From a plasmid, in assembly GCF_056746865.1 (NCBI RefSeq), contig NZ_JBWKMP010000005.1: 64,000 bases of DNA; one strand, given 5' to 3'. A program made the position numbers. Positions 1-15,000 of this stretch are shown here, in pieces. Every line of letters begins with the position of its first letter. The stretch's first letter is position 1.

Positions 1-3000
1 GTGCAGCTTGCTGTGATTAGCAAACGTCACTGGTCTGAACTATCACCGGAAGAGCAGGTCCGTTTCTGGCAGGACTACGAAGCGGGTATTGAAAGCTCAT
101 TCCTGGTCCTCCAGGAAAACAAAGGCGGAACAACAAAACGTCGCCGGGGTGAACATTCCACTAAGCCAAAGTGTGAGAATCCAGCCTGGTTCCGTCCCGA
201 CAACTATAAGGCGCTGGGCGGACAGTTGGGCCACGCTTACAATCGTCTCGTTAAAAAAGACCCGGTCACTGGTCAGAACACACTCAGAATGCACATGTCG
301 TTGCATCCATTTTATGTACTGAAACGTCAGAGTGTCGGTCGCAAATATAAATTCCGACCGGAAAAACAGCGGCTGCTTGACGCAATATGGGTTGTACTTG
401 TGAGTTTTTGTGATCGTGGATTGCACACTGTCGGCATGTCTGTCTCCCGCCTGGCAGAAGAAATAAGCCCAAAAGACAGTAAGGGAGACGTGATTCCTGA
501 AACCGCAGTCACAGTATCGCGCCTTTCCCGTCTGCTGGCAGAGCAGGTTTCCTTTGGCACGTTGGGAACGTCAGAAAAGACGATATGGGATCGTGAATCC
601 CGCCAGCGACTGCCGAAATACGTCTGGATCACCGAAACTGGCTGGAAAATGCTGGGAGTTGATCTGGTGAAACTTCAGGAACAGCAACGTAAGCGCCTTG
701 CAGAAAGTGAAATCCGTCTGCAATTGATTAAAGAAAGCGTTATCCGCGAGGGCGAAGAAATCTCTGTTCACTCGGCTCGTAAACGCTGGTATGCGCAGCG
801 TTCTCTCGATGCCATCAAGTCCCGACGTAAGAAAGCAGCGGAGCGCAAACGTGCTAATCGCCTGGCAAAACTGCCGTATGATGAACAGCGAAACGAAATT
901 GCGCGGTTTATTCTGAAGCGTATGCCGCCGGACGAAGCGTACTGGTGCACTAAAGAAAGATTAGAGCAACTGGTAGCCAGAGATCTACGTCAGCTTGAAC
1001 TGGCTCTGACAGCTTCGCCACCCCACTAGTTTAGCTGCCTGATACAATCGGCACTCTCTTCAGCCCCTTCGGGGCTTTTCGTGTTGCCTGCATTTCATGA
1101 AATTCCTCATATTTGACGACCGTTTTTCATTTTGTCCCGCTCTGACAGTTTTTTGATGGCCGCAATAGGGTATCGGAGTAAAAACGCCTTCGGTTATCCA
1201 CAAAAACCCGCAAAGGAATAACTTCAGAAAGCAGCAAACATAGAACATCAAACCCGCAATATATTCTTAACCCTTGTTCTTTAATCCCCTGCGTTGCTTC
1301 GCCGCAGGGAAAATATTTATCTTTGAAACAACTGTGGATAATCAAAAAAATGCCTTCGCTTGCAGCGGCTAACGCCGCGCCGCTCAGAATATAAAAGTAC
1401 CTCCCACCGCTTCGCGGCGGGCATATGGACTTCTGCCTAATGAAAAACAAAGCCCCTCCAACCCTCCTACAAAAAAACGCTGCAAATACTCAGCCACAGC
1501 GCCCAACCCATCACTGAAAAGCGCCGCCGCCCCCGCCCAAAGGGCGGGAACAACATCGCTTTCAATAATGGATGTTGTAACTAAGAAATCTCATCGCTGT
1601 CAGCCTTCTGGCTGGAAGTACCAAATACACGCTCGTAAGCGGCCCTGACGGTCCGCTAACGCGGAGATACGCCCCGACTGCGGGTAAACCCTTGTCGGGA
1701 CCACTCCGACCGCGCACAAAAGCTATTTCATGGCTGAAAGCGGGTATGGCTTAGCAGGATGGGGATGGGTAAGGTGAAACCTATCAATCAGTACCGGCTT
1801 ACGCCGGGCTTCGGCGGTTTAGCTCTGTGCCATATAAAACAACAGAGTGCCGCCTTACATGCCGCTGGCGCGGCATCAAAAAGAAAGCCCCCCAATAACG
1901 GGGGGAAATAGCGTTTTGATCAAAATGATAATGCTAGTGTGCTTCTTGCGTGCCATTCCAGGCACAAACTAAATTTAACGTTTCGTTAACTACAAAGAAA
2001 TCCGATGAGTTAATCACTTGCGAAATAAAAATCATATAGTAAATTACTATATGATTTTGCGTTGTTTCGGAGAATTAAAAAATGCCTTTGATTGAATACA
2101 TCAACAAGTTCTATCGGGGGAATCAGGCATCGTTCGCCAGGCTGACCGGAGTTCAACCTGCGCAGGTCACACAGTGGATCAACAAAGGATTCATCGTGGT
2201 GAATCACACACTGTATAGTCCACGCCGAAAGCTGGGAATTTAATTCCTGGTCAATATTTGACATCCTCCACGCCCTAAAGGACGTGGATTCCTACGACGT
2301 TCAGGCTGTCGCCTGAATCATTTCGGTGGGTTCCTGCTTCAACGGGCGGCCTGACTGCACCATCCCTCCACAGGCAAGTACGGCGTGCCCCGCCGCTAAA
2401 ATGTTACGAGCGCCGTTTACATCGGCGTTCGCTGTATATCCACATGCCTGACACACGAATTTACTTTGTGTCAGGCGGTTTTCTTTCGCTGTATGACCAC
2501 AGCACGCGCAACGCTGGCTTGTGTACGCTGGCGGAACAGCAAGCACCTGACCGCCACGCCAGAGCTGCTTGTACTCAAGCTGGCGGCGCATTTCATACCA
2601 GCCCTGATCCAGTATCGAACGGTTTAAACCTGATTTTGCCCGGACATTCCGCCCCGGCTGGCTGACCGTTCCCGCCGCTGACCTGGACATGTTGCTGACC
2701 TTCAAATCCTCAATGACTATCATTGCGTGGTTTTTGCTGACGGTCGTTGTGACTTTGTGAAGGTAGTCTCTGCGGATATTTGCGATACGGGAATGCAGTT
2801 GCTGTATTTTGCGTTTCTGCTTCTGCCAGTTGTTGCTGAATCTGACCTTGCGGCTTAACTGTCGCTGAAGTCTCGCCAGCGTCTTCTGGTTTTTCTGAAA
2901 ACTGTTTACAGGATCAAAAATAGTGCCATCTGACAGCGTGGCGAGTTTAGCCACGCCAGCATCCAGCCCGACCATTGATACTGAAGGGTGAACCGGAGTT

Positions 3001-12000: not shown

Positions 12001-15000
12001 CAGCTCTGGTGTGGCGGTCAGGTGCTTGCTGTTCCGCCAGCGTACACAAGCCAGCGTTGCGCGTGCTGTGGTCATACAGCGAAAGAAAATCGCCTGTCAC
12101 AAAGTCAATTCAGATGCCAGGTATGTGGATATACAGCGAACGCCGATGTAAACGGCGCTCGTAACATTTTAGCGGCGGGGCACGCCGTTCTTGCCTGTGG
12201 AGGGATGGTGCAGTCAGGCCGCCCGTTGAAGCAGGAACCCACCGAAATGATTCAGGCGACAGCCTGAACGTAGCAGGAATCCACGTCCTTCAGGGCGTGG
12301 AGGATGTCAAATAATTGCGATTTTGCCTGGTGTGTTGTTGCGCCCGTAGCTCGCTGACGCTCACACGCGCAGTACAGCGCCCCGCCCTGCTGCAATGCAC
12401 CAGGACGGCGTGAACTCGCTGGCGCTCGCGCTAACTGCGGCATTCTGCGGCGCAAATCAGCATGATCATAGCCTGTTGGTCTGTTCTGGCTTTGCAGGGC
12501 GAAGGGATGGCCCTGTGCATCCTGGTATGTTCGTCAGCGGCTGCGCCGCGCTTCGGGGCGATGTGGCCCCGCTGCTCCCTGGTATTTTCTTTCGCCCCTT
12601 CTATCCGCTGGCGCGGATAAAAAAATGAGCAAACCATCAAATAACTTGCTGTTTTCAGGCAACAAATCTTGATAATACATCTAAATAGATGTATTATTGT
12701 TTCATCGAAAGGGGATTGGCTCCTTTCCTTCTTAAGTCCAAACGGACAGGAGATTTAAAATGAAATTCACTTCAACCACGAATCATGTTTTCACATTCGA
12801 ACGAGTAACGCTTTGCACGATTGTTCTTATTCATAAGGATACGGGACAACAGTATGTTGTCATATTTACGGATAACAATAAAATTCGTGACTATAAGACC
12901 GGAATTGTTTCTCAGTTTGGTGAACTTAAGCAGAGTGATATTGATTTAATTCTTTTCTATCGGGACGAATATGAAAAATATTTTGACTCGTTAAATAATG
13001 GCGAGGAGTATTTGAGTTTTAAAGAATATATCGGATGTATAAGGGGAAAATAAATTATGAAAGGTGTGATCAGGTTGCTGGAACAACCTGATCACGTTAT
13101 CGACAATCAAAACTGAATGAGGTTTTTAAATGTCAACGCGGCAGATCGTACAGCTTGCTGACTCCCTTGTCAAAGGCTGGGAAACCAGAATTCCGGCAAT
13201 GACGTGCACGGAGTGGGATCAATTCCGGTGGTGGTTAAACTACCTGCAAGGGTATGAAATGTTTTAAATAACCGGGATAAATTCATATATGGGGAGAGTG
13301 TCATGCTCTCCCTTTCTTATTGTGTAAGCGAGTTGTATTACATATTTAGCTTTACGTTGTAAAGATTTTATTCGTTGTCTTTACAGTGTGGTGTGTTTTC
13401 CGGCGGTTGCGCTGCGCTTAGGGGTATGTGGCTTCGCTGCTCCCTGGTATTTTCTTTCACCCTCCTATTTGTCCGATGACTTTTGACAACAACGCTATTT
13501 GTAACTATAATTAGTTGCATGTTGGCAAGGGATGGGATTATAGCGTATGGGGAAAGCAGATAAGCTACTGGCAAAATTTTTAAACAGTAAAAAAACGTTT
13601 GAATGGGATGAACTCGTTGTTTTGTTTTCTTCTCTAGGATATGTCAAAAAGGAAATGCAGGGATCAAGAGTGCGATTTTTCAATGCTGAAATTAATCACA
13701 CAATATTAATGCATCGCCCACATCCAGAAAGTTATATTAAAGGTGGAACGCTGAAAGCTATTAAACAGAACTTGAAAGAGGCTGGGGTTTTATGAAACAT
13801 TTAAAATATAAAGGATATTTAGGTACGGTTGAGCCGGATTTTGAAAATAATATCCTGTATGGAAAGCTGGCATTTATTCGTGATCTGGTGACTTATGAGG
13901 CAGAAACATTGGCTGACCTGGAACGGGAATTTAAAACATCGGTTGATTTGTATTTACAGTCCTGTGTGGAGGACGGAAAGGAGCCTGACACGCCCTTTAA
14001 AGGTGTGTTTAACGTCAGGCTTGATCCAGAGCTGCATCGTCGGGTCGCTGAAATGGCGATGGAAGAAGATTTGTCGCTGAATGCCTTTGTCAATAAGGCA
14101 CTGGAAAAAGAAGTCAGTCATCATCGCGCAGGGGCTTAATCGCCCCTTTTTGTTGCTCGCAGGCGTTGATGTTTCTTGGTATTACGGTGTAGTGTGTTGT
14201 ATTTACAAACAATGCTTTACGGTGTATTACGATGCATACTCTTTAATTGCTTGCAATCTCTTTTCACGTTCGTTGCTTTGTTCAGCTTTTTTCAATTCAC
14301 TGAATATGTACTCTTCATCTTTACCCGTGAGTTTTGAACCGGAGAGCAAGCGATTAACAACTTTACGTCGAATTGCAGGGTAATCTTTGGTTTTATCGAG
14401 TATGGACAATATGCGGTCACTACTAAGAATCTGGCCTTTCCCTGATTCCACATAATGTAGAAAAAATGCGATTGCGGACACGCCCAAAAGCACTGTAAGG
14501 ACGGCTACACCATCAAGACGAAACTTTGATATAAAGGAATACGCGACCACTCCAATAATTGCTAAGCAGAGACATAAATAAATTAAGAGGTTTTTGTTGC
14601 GTTGTTTTTTTTGTGCGCGATCATGATCATCTATGATTGCCAGTATCTTTTCTGGAGTTGCTTGAGCCATTTTTTTTCCTTATCAGGGAGACGGAGTGTT
14701 CAATCATCTGGCTTTACAATGTAAAGCTGTGTTTGTCTTTACGGTGTAAATAATGAGATGTGCAGTTAAAAGTGTCAATCAGGTATCATATAGTAAAACA
14801 CTATATGATTTTTCTGTAATAGGCTTAAAAAATTCTCGCTTACATTGTAAAGGTCTTTGTGTCTTTACAGTGCACCACGTTGTAAATCACTGCCTTCTGT
14901 GGAGATAATCATGTTTTTTTCTGTTGGTGTCGAAACACCGAAAGATGATCAGACTGCATACGGCATCACTGTTCCGGCTTTTGATTGTTTTGGTTTTGGA

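Follow-up and report, generated by a model that had tools for sequence, protein, structure and literature searches.

A small predicted helix-turn-helix (HTH) protein of 53 aa, encoded on a resistance-bearing IncI2 conjugative plasmid, most likely acts as a Cro-like dimer that represses its own gene from a palindromic operator (site 1) and, through an identical core at a distant second palindrome (site 2), probably represses a rightward promoter in the control region of the hicAB locus. We consider this scheme as a whole moderately probable, with the binding and autorepression at site 1 strongly inferred and the second target at site 2 plausible from the sequence comparisons set out below. The window, which is the whole 64-kb stretch of plasmid DNA that was analysed, contains the features listed in Table 1. 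The type of circuit is classical, and the protein family is without earlier description; a literature search returned nothing on WP_001128311.1 and no relevant paper for the palindrome.

Table 1. Location of the operators, promoter-like sites and genes in the window
Feature	Position	Strand	Basis or remark
Candidate HTH-gene promoter TTGCGA-16-TAAATT, -10 at palindrome centre	2018..2045	+	Weak assignment, 8/12 matches
Operator site 1, perfect 31-bp palindrome, 15-bp arms	2028..2058		Core ATCATATAGT-AAATT-ACTATATGAT at 2031-2055
Cro/YdaS-like winged HTH protein gene, 53 aa, proposed repressor	2082..2243	+	Translation; WP_001128311.1
147-aa predicted membrane protein gene, one UniRef homologue named 'YafA'	14227..14670	-	Divergent partner of hicAB
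CTTTACAnTGTAAAG palindrome pair, another regulator's sites	14712..14751		Overlaps leftward promoter -10 and start region
Leftward promoter-like site TTGACA-17-CATTAT for 147-aa gene	14750..14778	-	10/12 matches
Rightward promoter-like site TTAAAA-17-TATAGT, -10 in site 2 left arm, proposed repression target	14766..14794	+	9/12 matches
Operator site 2, ATCATATAGT-AAAAC-ACTATATGAT	14785..14809		Two-copy pattern search
TTTACAnTGTAAA-type palindromes, second pair	14838..14877		Between site 2 and HicB-like gene
HicB antitoxin remnant, 99 aa, N-terminal domain only	14911..15210	+	phrog_497 (HicB-like) match

Two exact copies of a palindrome on an IncI2 plasmid

The pattern ATCATATAGT-N5-ACTATATGAT occurs exactly twice in the whole 64-kb window, where none is expected by chance (0 in 100 dinucleotide-preserving shuffles), and the palindromes at site 1 and site 2 are therefore real and non-random. 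Their centres are 12,754 bp apart, and a search of the window revealed no third site convincingly above chance. An earlier note on this DNA had described two copies 12.7 kb apart, each upstream of an ORF; the two copies, both ORFs (encoding 53 aa and 99 aa) and the position of site 2 with its 10-bp arms, here around the spacer AAAAC, were confirmed, whereas site 1 had been placed at 2041-2065, 10 nt away from the common 25-mer, and its arms, given as 12 bp, extend to 15 bp around base 2043. Approximately 3.5-4 kb of the inter-site distance consists of two extra TnpB insertions that are absent from other IncI2 plasmids. The possibility that the palindrome is part of the adjacent TnpB element was rejected, as site 1 is present in R721 and pE105-2, neither of which has the insertion.

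The palindrome was present in 348 of 5,426 complete E. coli genomes, with all copies plasmid-borne and a median of two places per positive genome. In PLSDB, the 53-aa gene together with site 1 was found in 540 records and the site 2 region in 532, with a nearly equal genus split for the two sets. Strict co-occurrence of the two sites fails: plasmids of the pE105-2 type have site 1 only, and some 147-154-kb plasmids have site 2 without site 1. In pE105-2, a divergent IncI2-like plasmid, the arms of site 1 are identical to those of the window though the flanks differ.

The 53-aa ORF is conserved and encodes a predicted HTH protein

The ORF begins 26 nt past the end of the 25-mer core of site 1 and is preceded by GGAG, 9 nt before the ATG. 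Judged by its sequence, it is a genuine gene under purifying selection, because dN/dS was 0.02-0.05 relative to prophage homologues (with synonymous sites saturated) and the AF2 model of its product was confident (pLDDT 91.3). The model comprises helices at residues 3-11, 15-22 and 26-35 followed by a beta-hairpin at residues 38-45 (strands 38-40 and 43-45), and the third helix is the presumed recognition helix. The earlier note had called the ORF unannotated, which holds for most PLSDB records; a few list it as 'hypothetical protein' WP_001128311.1.

Comparison with PHROGs gave a strong match to phrog_10103 (E=1e-33), and the protein may be distantly YdaS/Cro-like. The Pfam family YdaS_toxin (PF15943) was matched weakly and over residues 13-35 only (i-E = 0.0055), with 7 of 17 aligned relatives matching at E ≤ 0.001 and 15 of 17 at E ≤ 0.1. 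There was no NCBIfam match above cut-off, and a Foldseek search of the model against the PDB returned nothing at E ≤ 0.001; the best whole-length structure alignments, below significance, were to lambda Cro (1d1m, TMq 0.52) and Pfl6 Cro (2pij, TMq 0.59), and a PDB sequence-profile search reached Cro entries at E = 0.2-1 only. The KorA-operator structure 5clv was also among the weak fold matches. A conserved QVTQW...LYSPRR signature marks a separate clade of about 700 cluster representatives at 50% identity. PADLOC gave a weak mad1 match only (E = 0.016), and a role as a type II toxin-antitoxin antitoxin was rejected, as there is no adjacent toxin gene and the gene stands alone in IncI2 plasmids, pE105-2 and prophages.

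Gene and operator are linked in prophages and phages

Prophages of Pectobacterium, Klebsiella and Salmonella have homologues with 83-85% identity at their ends, each preceded by the same palindrome, which ends 22-27 nt before the ATG and matches the arms at 18-20 of 20 positions, whereas the flanks (45 nt upstream and 20 nt downstream) are only 10-36% identical to the window, a random level at which they are unalignable. In four genera, on plasmids as well as in prophages, the gene and the palindrome have been inherited as a unit. The centre of the prophage operators is AAAAC, as at site 2, and all matches with an AAAAC or ATTTT centre (4/4) in a viral-contig scan with a 16-base palindrome adjoin the gene. 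In phage phiEt88, as in the prophages, operators and promoter-like hexamers overlap, and the hexamers TTATCA-18-GATAAT of the prophage relatives are part of the extended palindrome. At site 1 of the window a promoter scanner made no call, the candidate hexamers being under threshold, and pE105-2 has TTGCCA-16-TAAATT at the corresponding position; the putative promoter is assigned here weakly.

A comparison of operator and protein subclass at 64 distinct phage loci, with three main protein classes, showed that the upstream operator changes with the class of the protein: TAWAGY-N5-RCTWTA precedes 31 of 34 genes for TQW proteins, TAATCA-N1-7-TGATTA 19 of 20 for TKW-W proteins and TAAACC-N3-5-GGTTTA 8 of 9 for TKW-C proteins. 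There were no cross-class operator matches among the three main classes at these 64 loci, and control sequence downstream at the same loci gave few operator matches. Because the arms are kept despite unalignable flanks and saturated synonymous sites, and because the operators are class-specific, we strongly infer that the 53-aa protein binds site 1 and represses its own gene. The autoregulation by a small HTH protein suggested in the earlier note is thus strongly supported on comparative grounds, by gene-palindrome linkage and by the covariation of half-site and subclass.

These comparisons also bear on an alternative that we regard as very improbable, in which the palindromes work through hairpins of the nucleic acid itself, be it as cruciforms or as weak intrinsic terminators or insulators in both directions. 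Both palindromes fold as RNA (-11.9 to -13.4 kcal/mol, z -4.3 to -6.3) and a T run of 4-5 bases follows each on the + strand, but the stems are almost all A/T rather than G+C-rich, a terminator scan called neither site and the T tract is missing from the prophage copies, and on these points a rho-independent terminator was rejected. A hairpin would also tolerate compensatory changes, yet the arm sequence is fixed across genera and shifts with protein subclass.

The operators in phage relatives are local to the HTH operon, and no distant second operator was seen. Standalone genes have a single operator starting 43-48 nt before the ATG, and phage cassettes have paired upstream operators 21 or 26 bp apart. 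In phiEt88 the homologue (45.7-45.9 kb) is part of a cassette between Q and the lysis genes (holin), and a scan of the whole phiEt88 genome found two adjacent operators and no others. A viral-contig scan with TAWAGTAAAACRCTWTA gave at least 120 loci; among the matches listed, the HTH gene was within 27-554 nt at 20 of 120 loci and no contig occurred twice, each locus having a single operator or an adjacent pair, so that no distant second operators were detected in phages. The remaining loci among the matches listed were mostly low-GC and without the gene, and were taken as chance or unrelated matches. A genome-contig scan with ATATAGTRWWWYACTATAT likewise gave at least 120 matches, and among those listed none had the HTH gene and all were unrelated sites, mostly in Clostridia and other Bacillota MAGs, making the scan uninformative on orphan sites in Enterobacterales. 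The phage neighbours of the homologous genes are variable. No homologue of the phage cassette neighbours (phrog_11282, phrog_32723 and others) was found in the window by tblastn, and the HTH gene therefore moved alone.

Site 2 is located in a conserved divergent control region

Site 2 is set in a conserved control region between the divergent 147-aa membrane-protein gene and hicA-hicB, the latter being present at the corresponding locus in most IncI2 plasmids. In the window hicA is missing, and the ORF that the earlier note had recognised as HicB-N-domain-like is indeed a remnant of the hicA-hicB operon; it lacks the DNA-binding C-terminus and shares 86% identity with residues 1-95 of HicB (145 aa) from pEF5-18-41_4. 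The 147-aa protein matched no Pfam, NCBIfam or PADLOC family and PHROGs suggested no function; relatives at 60-73% identity also have its gene facing away from hicA/hicB as a divergent pair. The site 2 core, ATATAGT/ACTATAT, does not vary among six variants of IncI2 and mosaic type, nor in the more divergent yafA/hicAB loci (60-73% identity). Two mosaic plasmids, the IncF plasmid pE94-5 and p06_3288-1, carry the site 2 module.

Both hexamers of the rightward promoter-like site are invariant in alignment A1, and the leftward TTGACA-17-CATTAT is invariant there except for its flanks. Immediately right of site 2 the alignment has a 15-nt indel and divergence, followed by the hicA deletion in the window lineage, and the proposal that IncI2 homology breaks exactly at the palindrome was softened on this basis. 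In most IncI2 plasmids hicA has a proximal promoter of its own, approximately 125 nt downstream of site 2. Identical cores lie in two intergenic regions with promoter-like sites, whereas a KorA/ArdK-like regulon would have identical operators at the promoters of two or more separate transcription units, so that such a regulon is a possible reading here; the TTTACAnTGTAAA sites, a different element, seem to account for the multi-site network of the window.

Repression of the HicB-like gene via site 2 is plausible on this arrangement, and the leftward 147-aa gene is an equally placed, plausible candidate. The regulated gene is ambiguous because the stronger promoter-like site runs leftward, with the palindrome upstream of its -35 and centred near -54. 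The suggestion of the earlier note that the HTH protein may also repress the distant gene is thus plausible, but it is weakened by this leftward promoter, by the proximal promoter that the hicA-hicB operon has in most IncI2 plasmids, the HicB-N-like ORF being a remnant of that operon, and by the finding of local operators and no distant second one in the phage relatives. It is rather unlikely that autoregulation at site 1 and binding at site 2 are combined with a target that is the leftward gene, or both divergent promoters, the palindrome then occupying the UP-element/alpha-CTD zone or serving as an activator site at about -54. Such a target would fit the region's best promoter-like site, whose -35 the palindrome abuts, and the centre of site 2, which reads GTTTT toward the 147-aa gene, the polarity of all gene-proximal prophage operators. 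However, a site near -54 leaves the core promoter unoccluded, and pE94-5 keeps the palindrome control region by hicAB although it has lost the 147-aa gene. Relatives at 60-73% identity retain that gene together with the palindrome, but this linkage does not discriminate between the genes, because the same relatives retain hicAB too.

It is quite unlikely that site 1 alone is functional and that site 2 is a passenger without regulatory effect, which would have entered yafA/hicAB by recombination as a piece of operator and promoter from an earlier HTH module. The local operators of the phage and prophage relatives would agree with this, as would the prophage-type AAAAC centre of site 2 (AAATT at site 1) and the persistence of the module in plasmids without site 1, and conservation among hundreds of near-identical IncI2 records carries little weight. 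Against this, the 14 core arm positions are constant in every variant examined, among them lineages in which the surrounding intergenic DNA is ~6-13% different, promoter-like hexamers lie under site 2 in both directions, and the protein, if present, must bind an identical core.

HicB antitoxins usually autoregulate hicAB via palindromes, and site 2 could in principle be an operator of HicB with only a coincidental likeness to site 1. This is scarcely credible, as its arms match 20/20 an element found with the HTH gene in prophages that have no hicAB, the palindrome is kept in the window although HicB has lost its DNA-binding domain, and it is ~125 nt upstream of the proximal hicA promoter. The IncI2 hicA-hicB module has been reported as a driver of plasmid-plasmid competition, with HicB self-repression mentioned (PMC11878559), and a NAR 2025 study of the IncI2 hicAB operon explained its control in an account from which the palindrome element is absent. 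A conserved, mostly unlisted regulator with an operator in the hicAB/yafA control region would add a missing circuit layer.

Proposed mechanism and implications

In the favoured scheme, with repression at both sites, the 53-aa protein would bind ATATAGT-N5-ACTATAT as a dimer, the half-sites being 11 bp apart from centre to centre, or one helical turn. The operator at site 1 (2028-2058) would cover the putative core promoter of the protein's own gene, giving negative autoregulation. The same protein would occupy the identical core at site 2 (14785-14809) and most likely block the rightward promoter, the predicted -10 of which, TATAGT, is in the left arm; with this promoter blocked, the transcript of hicAB, or of the hicB remnant, would be tied to repressor level. 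If autoregulation alone holds, the protein is an ordinary small repressor. The uncharacterised Cro-like clade, with its three predicted protein-operator specificity classes, would in addition be a natural set for HTH specificity evolution.

IncI2 plasmids are the main carriers of mcr-1. The residues GVQPAQVTQW, within which predicted helix 3 begins, and the operator cores are identical in the plasmid and the prophages, and a cross-element regulatory network of plasmid and prophage homologues, linked to establishment and competition of mcr-1 plasmids, is therefore possible, but unlikely. Were it true, an incoming IncI2 plasmid would have its promoters at sites 1 and 2 repressed in advance by any resident prophage of the Salmonella, Klebsiella or Pectobacterium kind, cassettes of prophages or phages would in turn be targets of the plasmid protein, and naive recipients would transiently over-express yafA/hicAB after transfer until the plasmid repressor built up, tying a phage-derived mini-repressor to mcr-1 plasmid establishment and competition.

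Comparison with known systems

Cro-type small repressors include lambda Cro, P22 Cro and YdaS of the Rac and CP-933P prophages (Pfam PF15943). The 53-aa protein resembles these in size (about 50-70 aa), in its AF2-predicted three helices and beta-hairpin, in the presumed binding of a dimer to an AT-rich palindrome over a promoter and in weak profile similarity, and differs in having no significant profile or fold match and in belonging to the separate QVTQW...LYSPRR clade. PMC8630535 and PMC5917428 discuss YdaS as a Cro equivalent. A role as the Cro of a CI/Cro immunity switch was rejected: the repressor pair of phiEt88 lies elsewhere (33.8-34.9 kb), and the HTH gene has no divergent partner in IncI2 plasmids or at prophage ends, where it stands alone.

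Controller (C) proteins of restriction-modification systems, small and of HTH type, regulate their own operon from palindromic boxes directly before it, often two side by side, and activation at low concentration is a hallmark of theirs. A C protein features in PMC9638921 and PMC6765115. The operator pairs 21 or 26 bp apart in phage cassettes are similar; unlike C proteins, the 53-aa protein has no adjacent restriction-modification genes and no sequence relationship to them.

Some conjugative plasmids encode global repressors that have operators at several promoters, such as KorA of RK2 and ArdK and StbA of R388. The present case differs from these in having two sites only, of which the second is absent from smaller IncI2-like plasmids, and in that its regulon is a predicted one; it shares with them a small plasmid repressor candidate whose own promoter has the same operator as a promoter in the maintenance and presumed leading region, and this two-operator arrangement would permit a burst of expression after transfer until the repressor accumulates.

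A palindrome shared by a small HTH gene and the hicAB control region

The palindrome ATCATATAGT-N5-ACTATATGAT occurs exactly twice in the window, with none expected from shuffled sequence, which bears out the two copies of the earlier note. The second copy (site 2) lies at 14785-14809, the coordinates given in that note, between the gene for a 147-aa, YafA-like predicted membrane protein on one side and the hicAB locus on the other. The first copy (site 1), upstream of a 53-aa helix-turn-helix (HTH) ORF, had been placed at 2041-2065, but the shared core is at 2031-2055, within a perfect 31-bp palindrome (2028-2058). 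Five degenerate TATAGT-N5-ACTATA sequences with 1-2 mismatches are also present (10169-10185, 12879-12895, 16719-16735, 32101-32117 and 48666-48682), at least the first three within ORFs; with the two perfect sites this gives seven versus 1.7 expected in the window, and the five are probably chance matches.

The window is a conjugative plasmid of the IncI2 type: its site 1 and site 2 regions have 99-100% identity with hundreds of IncI2 plasmids of ~60 kb that come from Escherichia, Salmonella, Shigella and Klebsiella, R721 and mcr-1-type plasmids among them. Given the positions of mobC and the relaxase gene in the local gene order, ~3.5 kb separate site 2 from the region where oriT probably lies, and site 2, by analogy with IncI1/MOBP plasmids, would be inside the presumed leading region.

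Features of the window in the neighbourhood of the two palindromes
Feature	Coordinates	Strand	Remark
repA	1-1029		
HTH ORF	2082-2243	+	
TnpB element, copy 1	2255-3509	-	
hok/sok	sok 3604-3775		follows TnpB copy 1
ProQ/FinO-family gene			follows hok/sok
ParA partner, 94 aa	4698-4982	-	small, ribbon-helix-helix-like
ParA-like gene	5056-5721	-	
Gene run		+	follows ParA-like gene and partner; broken by TnpB copies 2 and 3
TnpB element, copy 2	6345-7597	+	
TnpB element, copy 3	11059-12313	+	
278-nt direct repeats	7785-8062, 8518-8795, 12488-12765		
hicA-hicB	13547-14139		
147-aa gene	14227-14670	-	
HicB remnant, 99 aa	14911-15210	+	beyond site 2
mobC	18507-18848		
Relaxase gene	18845-23158		
CTTTACAnTGTAAAG sites	5010-5024, 5733-5817, 10477-10516, 13350-13393, 14712-14751, 14838-14877, 15257-15296		

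The three TnpB elements are of the TnpB-only IS200/IS605 type, and each codes for a 402-aa member of the RNA-guided endonuclease family. An identical 300-nt upstream flank precedes copies 2 and 3 (5845-6144 and 10559-10858). Both are 94% complementary to copy 1, which starts 12 nt past the HTH gene stop codon, a spot at which R721 has an IS150 insertion. The three 278-nt repeats (82-96% identity) each end where a + strand ORF begins (8057, 8790 and 12760) in the presumed leading region. Repeated single-strand promoter elements (Frpo/ssi) are found in the leading regions of F and IncI1 plasmids, and the 278-nt repeats are reminiscent of these.

The 53-aa ORF is a real gene

The ORF encodes MPLIEYINKFYRGNQASFARLTGVQPAQVTQWINKGFIVVNHTLYSPRRKLGI, with GGAG 9 nt 5′ of its ATG. 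Relative to Pectobacterium, Klebsiella and Salmonella homologues, 38-44 of 159 DNA positions are changed and only 8-9 protein positions, giving a dN/dS of 0.02-0.05 with synonymous sites saturated; all six differences from the copy on pE105-2, a divergent IncI2-like plasmid, are synonymous.

An AlphaFold model from a 17-sequence alignment (pLDDT 91) has helices at residues 3-11, 15-22 and 26-35 and a beta-hairpin at 38-45, and sequence and fold searches place the protein only loosely among known families. Membership of Pfam YdaS_toxin appears borderline by sequence (E = 0.0055; E ≤ 0.001 for 7 and E ≤ 0.1 for 15 of 17 relatives), Cro proteins were matched at E = 0.2-1 in a PDB profile search, and Foldseek gave no significant match, with Fis, lambda Cro and Pfl6 Cro ranked highest. 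The protein is matched at 1e-33 by phrog_10103 (function unknown), and a profile search returned 698 family representatives at 50% identity. Several members (P0137-P0144, 104-275 aa) carry two copies of the 53-aa domain in tandem and could be natural single-chain dimers, which is consistent with the domain acting as a dimer on palindromic DNA. In the searchable literature, no description was found of this protein family, of the operator code or of family members on IncI2 plasmids.

Gene and palindrome travel together

Prophage homologues with 83-85% protein identity are standalone genes at one prophage end, between a host gene and tail-fibre genes, and all of these copies have the same palindromic element ending 22-27 nt 5′ of the ATG (for example, gcaattATCATATAGTGTTTTACTATATGATaattgc). 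Of the 20 arm positions, 18-20 are identical to those in the window, and the flanks (45 nt on the upstream side, 20 nt on the downstream side) have 10-36% identity. Site 1 of pE105-2 similarly has intact arms and divergent flanks. When viral contigs were scanned for CATATAGT-N5-ACTATATG, the homologous HTH gene was adjacent to 4/4 AAAAC/ATTTT-centred matches, and the remaining 33 matches were unrelated.

PLSDB contains the HTH gene with site 1 in 540 records and the site 2 region in 532, with nearly equal genus breakdowns. The palindrome is present in 348 of 5,426 complete E. coli genomes; these have a median of two occurrences each, and all 644 places are on plasmids. Co-occurrence of the two sites is not absolute: 36-39-kb IncI2-like plasmids have site 1 only, and some 147-154-kb mosaic plasmids have site 2 only.

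Palindrome class follows protein class

Covariation was analysed at 80 viral loci with homologues (50 distinct proteins), with the formal count made on 64 distinct loci. The best upstream palindromes form three classes that track protein class: TAWAGY-N5-RCTWTA for 'QVTQW' proteins (31/34), TAATCA-N1-7-TGATTA for 'QVTKW...W' proteins (19/20) and TAAACC-N3-5-GGTTTA for 'QVTKW...C' proteins (8/9). There were no cross-class operator matches among these main classes at the 64 loci, and downstream DNA, taken as a control in fourfold amount, gave few matches. Prophage palindromes contain the promoter-like TTATCA-18-GATAAT; the HTH gene of a phage cassette is usually the second one, with an operator pair, 21 or 26 bp apart, 5′ of the first gene, and in phage phiEt88 the promoter-like TTTACA-17-TACTAT runs across this pair. 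Both plasmid sites can fold (-12 to -13 kcal/mol) and T runs follow the palindromes in the plasmid, as might suit purely structural hairpins, but class covariation and promoter overlap form the sequence pattern that a dimeric repressor and the operator bound by it would be expected to show, and this argues against a purely structural role.

The HTH homologue is the middle cassette gene in PSTNGR2lys (L004 2446-3781), phiEt88 (L005 833-2432) and fHe-Yen8-01 (L007 2450-3718), where the first gene encodes an acidic ~155-aa protein (phrog_11282, function unknown; N-terminus KLFHGS in two of the three) and the third is variable. The temperate-phage cassette is encoded on the opposite strand, and in PSTNGR2lys, phiEt88 and ENT47670 it lies between Q-antiterminator/RusA genes and lysis genes. 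Control by the HTH repressor of a moron or an anti-defence cassette is a possible reading.

Site 2 overlaps a promoter-like sequence

The site 2 core, ATATAGT/ACTATAT, is invariant in all aligned variants, including the IncF mosaic pE94-5, and at loci where the 147-aa protein is just 60-73% identical; variation is limited to the spacer and the outermost positions of the arms. Most IncI2 plasmids (~70% of matching records) have, right of site 2, a proximal extended -10 promoter and the genes hicA and hicB with an internal terminator between them. PMC11878559 studied this locus as the HicA^T-B system, and both the palindrome and the small HTH ORF are unmentioned there. Alignment shows that the window lineage has lost hicA and its proximal promoter by deletion on this side of site 2, and the HicB remnant comprises the first 95 HicB residues (86% identity) without the DNA-binding C-terminus.

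The rightward promoter-like TTAAAA-17-TATAGT, with its -10 within the left arm of site 2, is the sole consensus-like promoter in the window positioned to drive the remnant; another rightward match, TTGTAA-18-GATAAT, ends 2 nt 5′ of the remnant ATG. Site 2 may instead control the leftward 147-aa gene, on which side the palindrome falls at about -42 to -66 of the promoter-like TTGACA-17-CATTAT.

Plasmids with hicA-hicB have an imperfect palindrome, CTATGTATCACATGCATAG, immediately right of site 2 (L001 10779-10800; columns 176-197 of the site 2 alignment), which is missing from the window lineage. It could serve HicB as an operator or belong to the distal promoter region.

Other palindrome families

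Palindromes of the CTTTACAnTGTAAAG type have 16 matches in the window versus 4.2 expected, mostly as pairs 25 bp apart. Two such pairs, differing from the site 2 palindrome, flank it on both sides, and four copies are directly 5′ of the ParA-like gene, whose partner looks like a ribbon-helix-helix protein of the ParG/CopG type. The family is probably a centromere/operator regulon across the maintenance and leading regions. The unrelated palindrome ACTATATAGTATAATACTATATAGT recurs, among the matches listed, in many Clostridia/Oscillospiraceae MAG contigs of 43-55% G+C (L144-L259, e.g. L151 5155 and L198 9043), and is presumably the operator of another regulator.

Proposed mechanism and comparison with known systems

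The HTH protein would bind as a dimer, its two half-sites being spaced by 11 bp, and at site 1 would repress its own promoter, a prediction from comparative evidence that has high confidence. Whenever present it would also occupy site 2, which may have no regulatory consequence; the most economical consequence would be occlusion of the rightward promoter, predicted with moderate confidence. A reasonable corollary of the two-site model is a transient burst of expression after transfer, because the presumed leading region would enter the recipient before the repressor exists. A link to hicAB control or prophage-plasmid cross-talk, if true, would make the finding of greater interest.

The definitions of a CI/Cro switch component and of an antitoxin do not fit the HTH protein. 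As a predicted autoregulator it would be functionally similar to Cro and to C proteins, and with its two sites it would be a minimal version of the KorA-like global repressors of plasmids.
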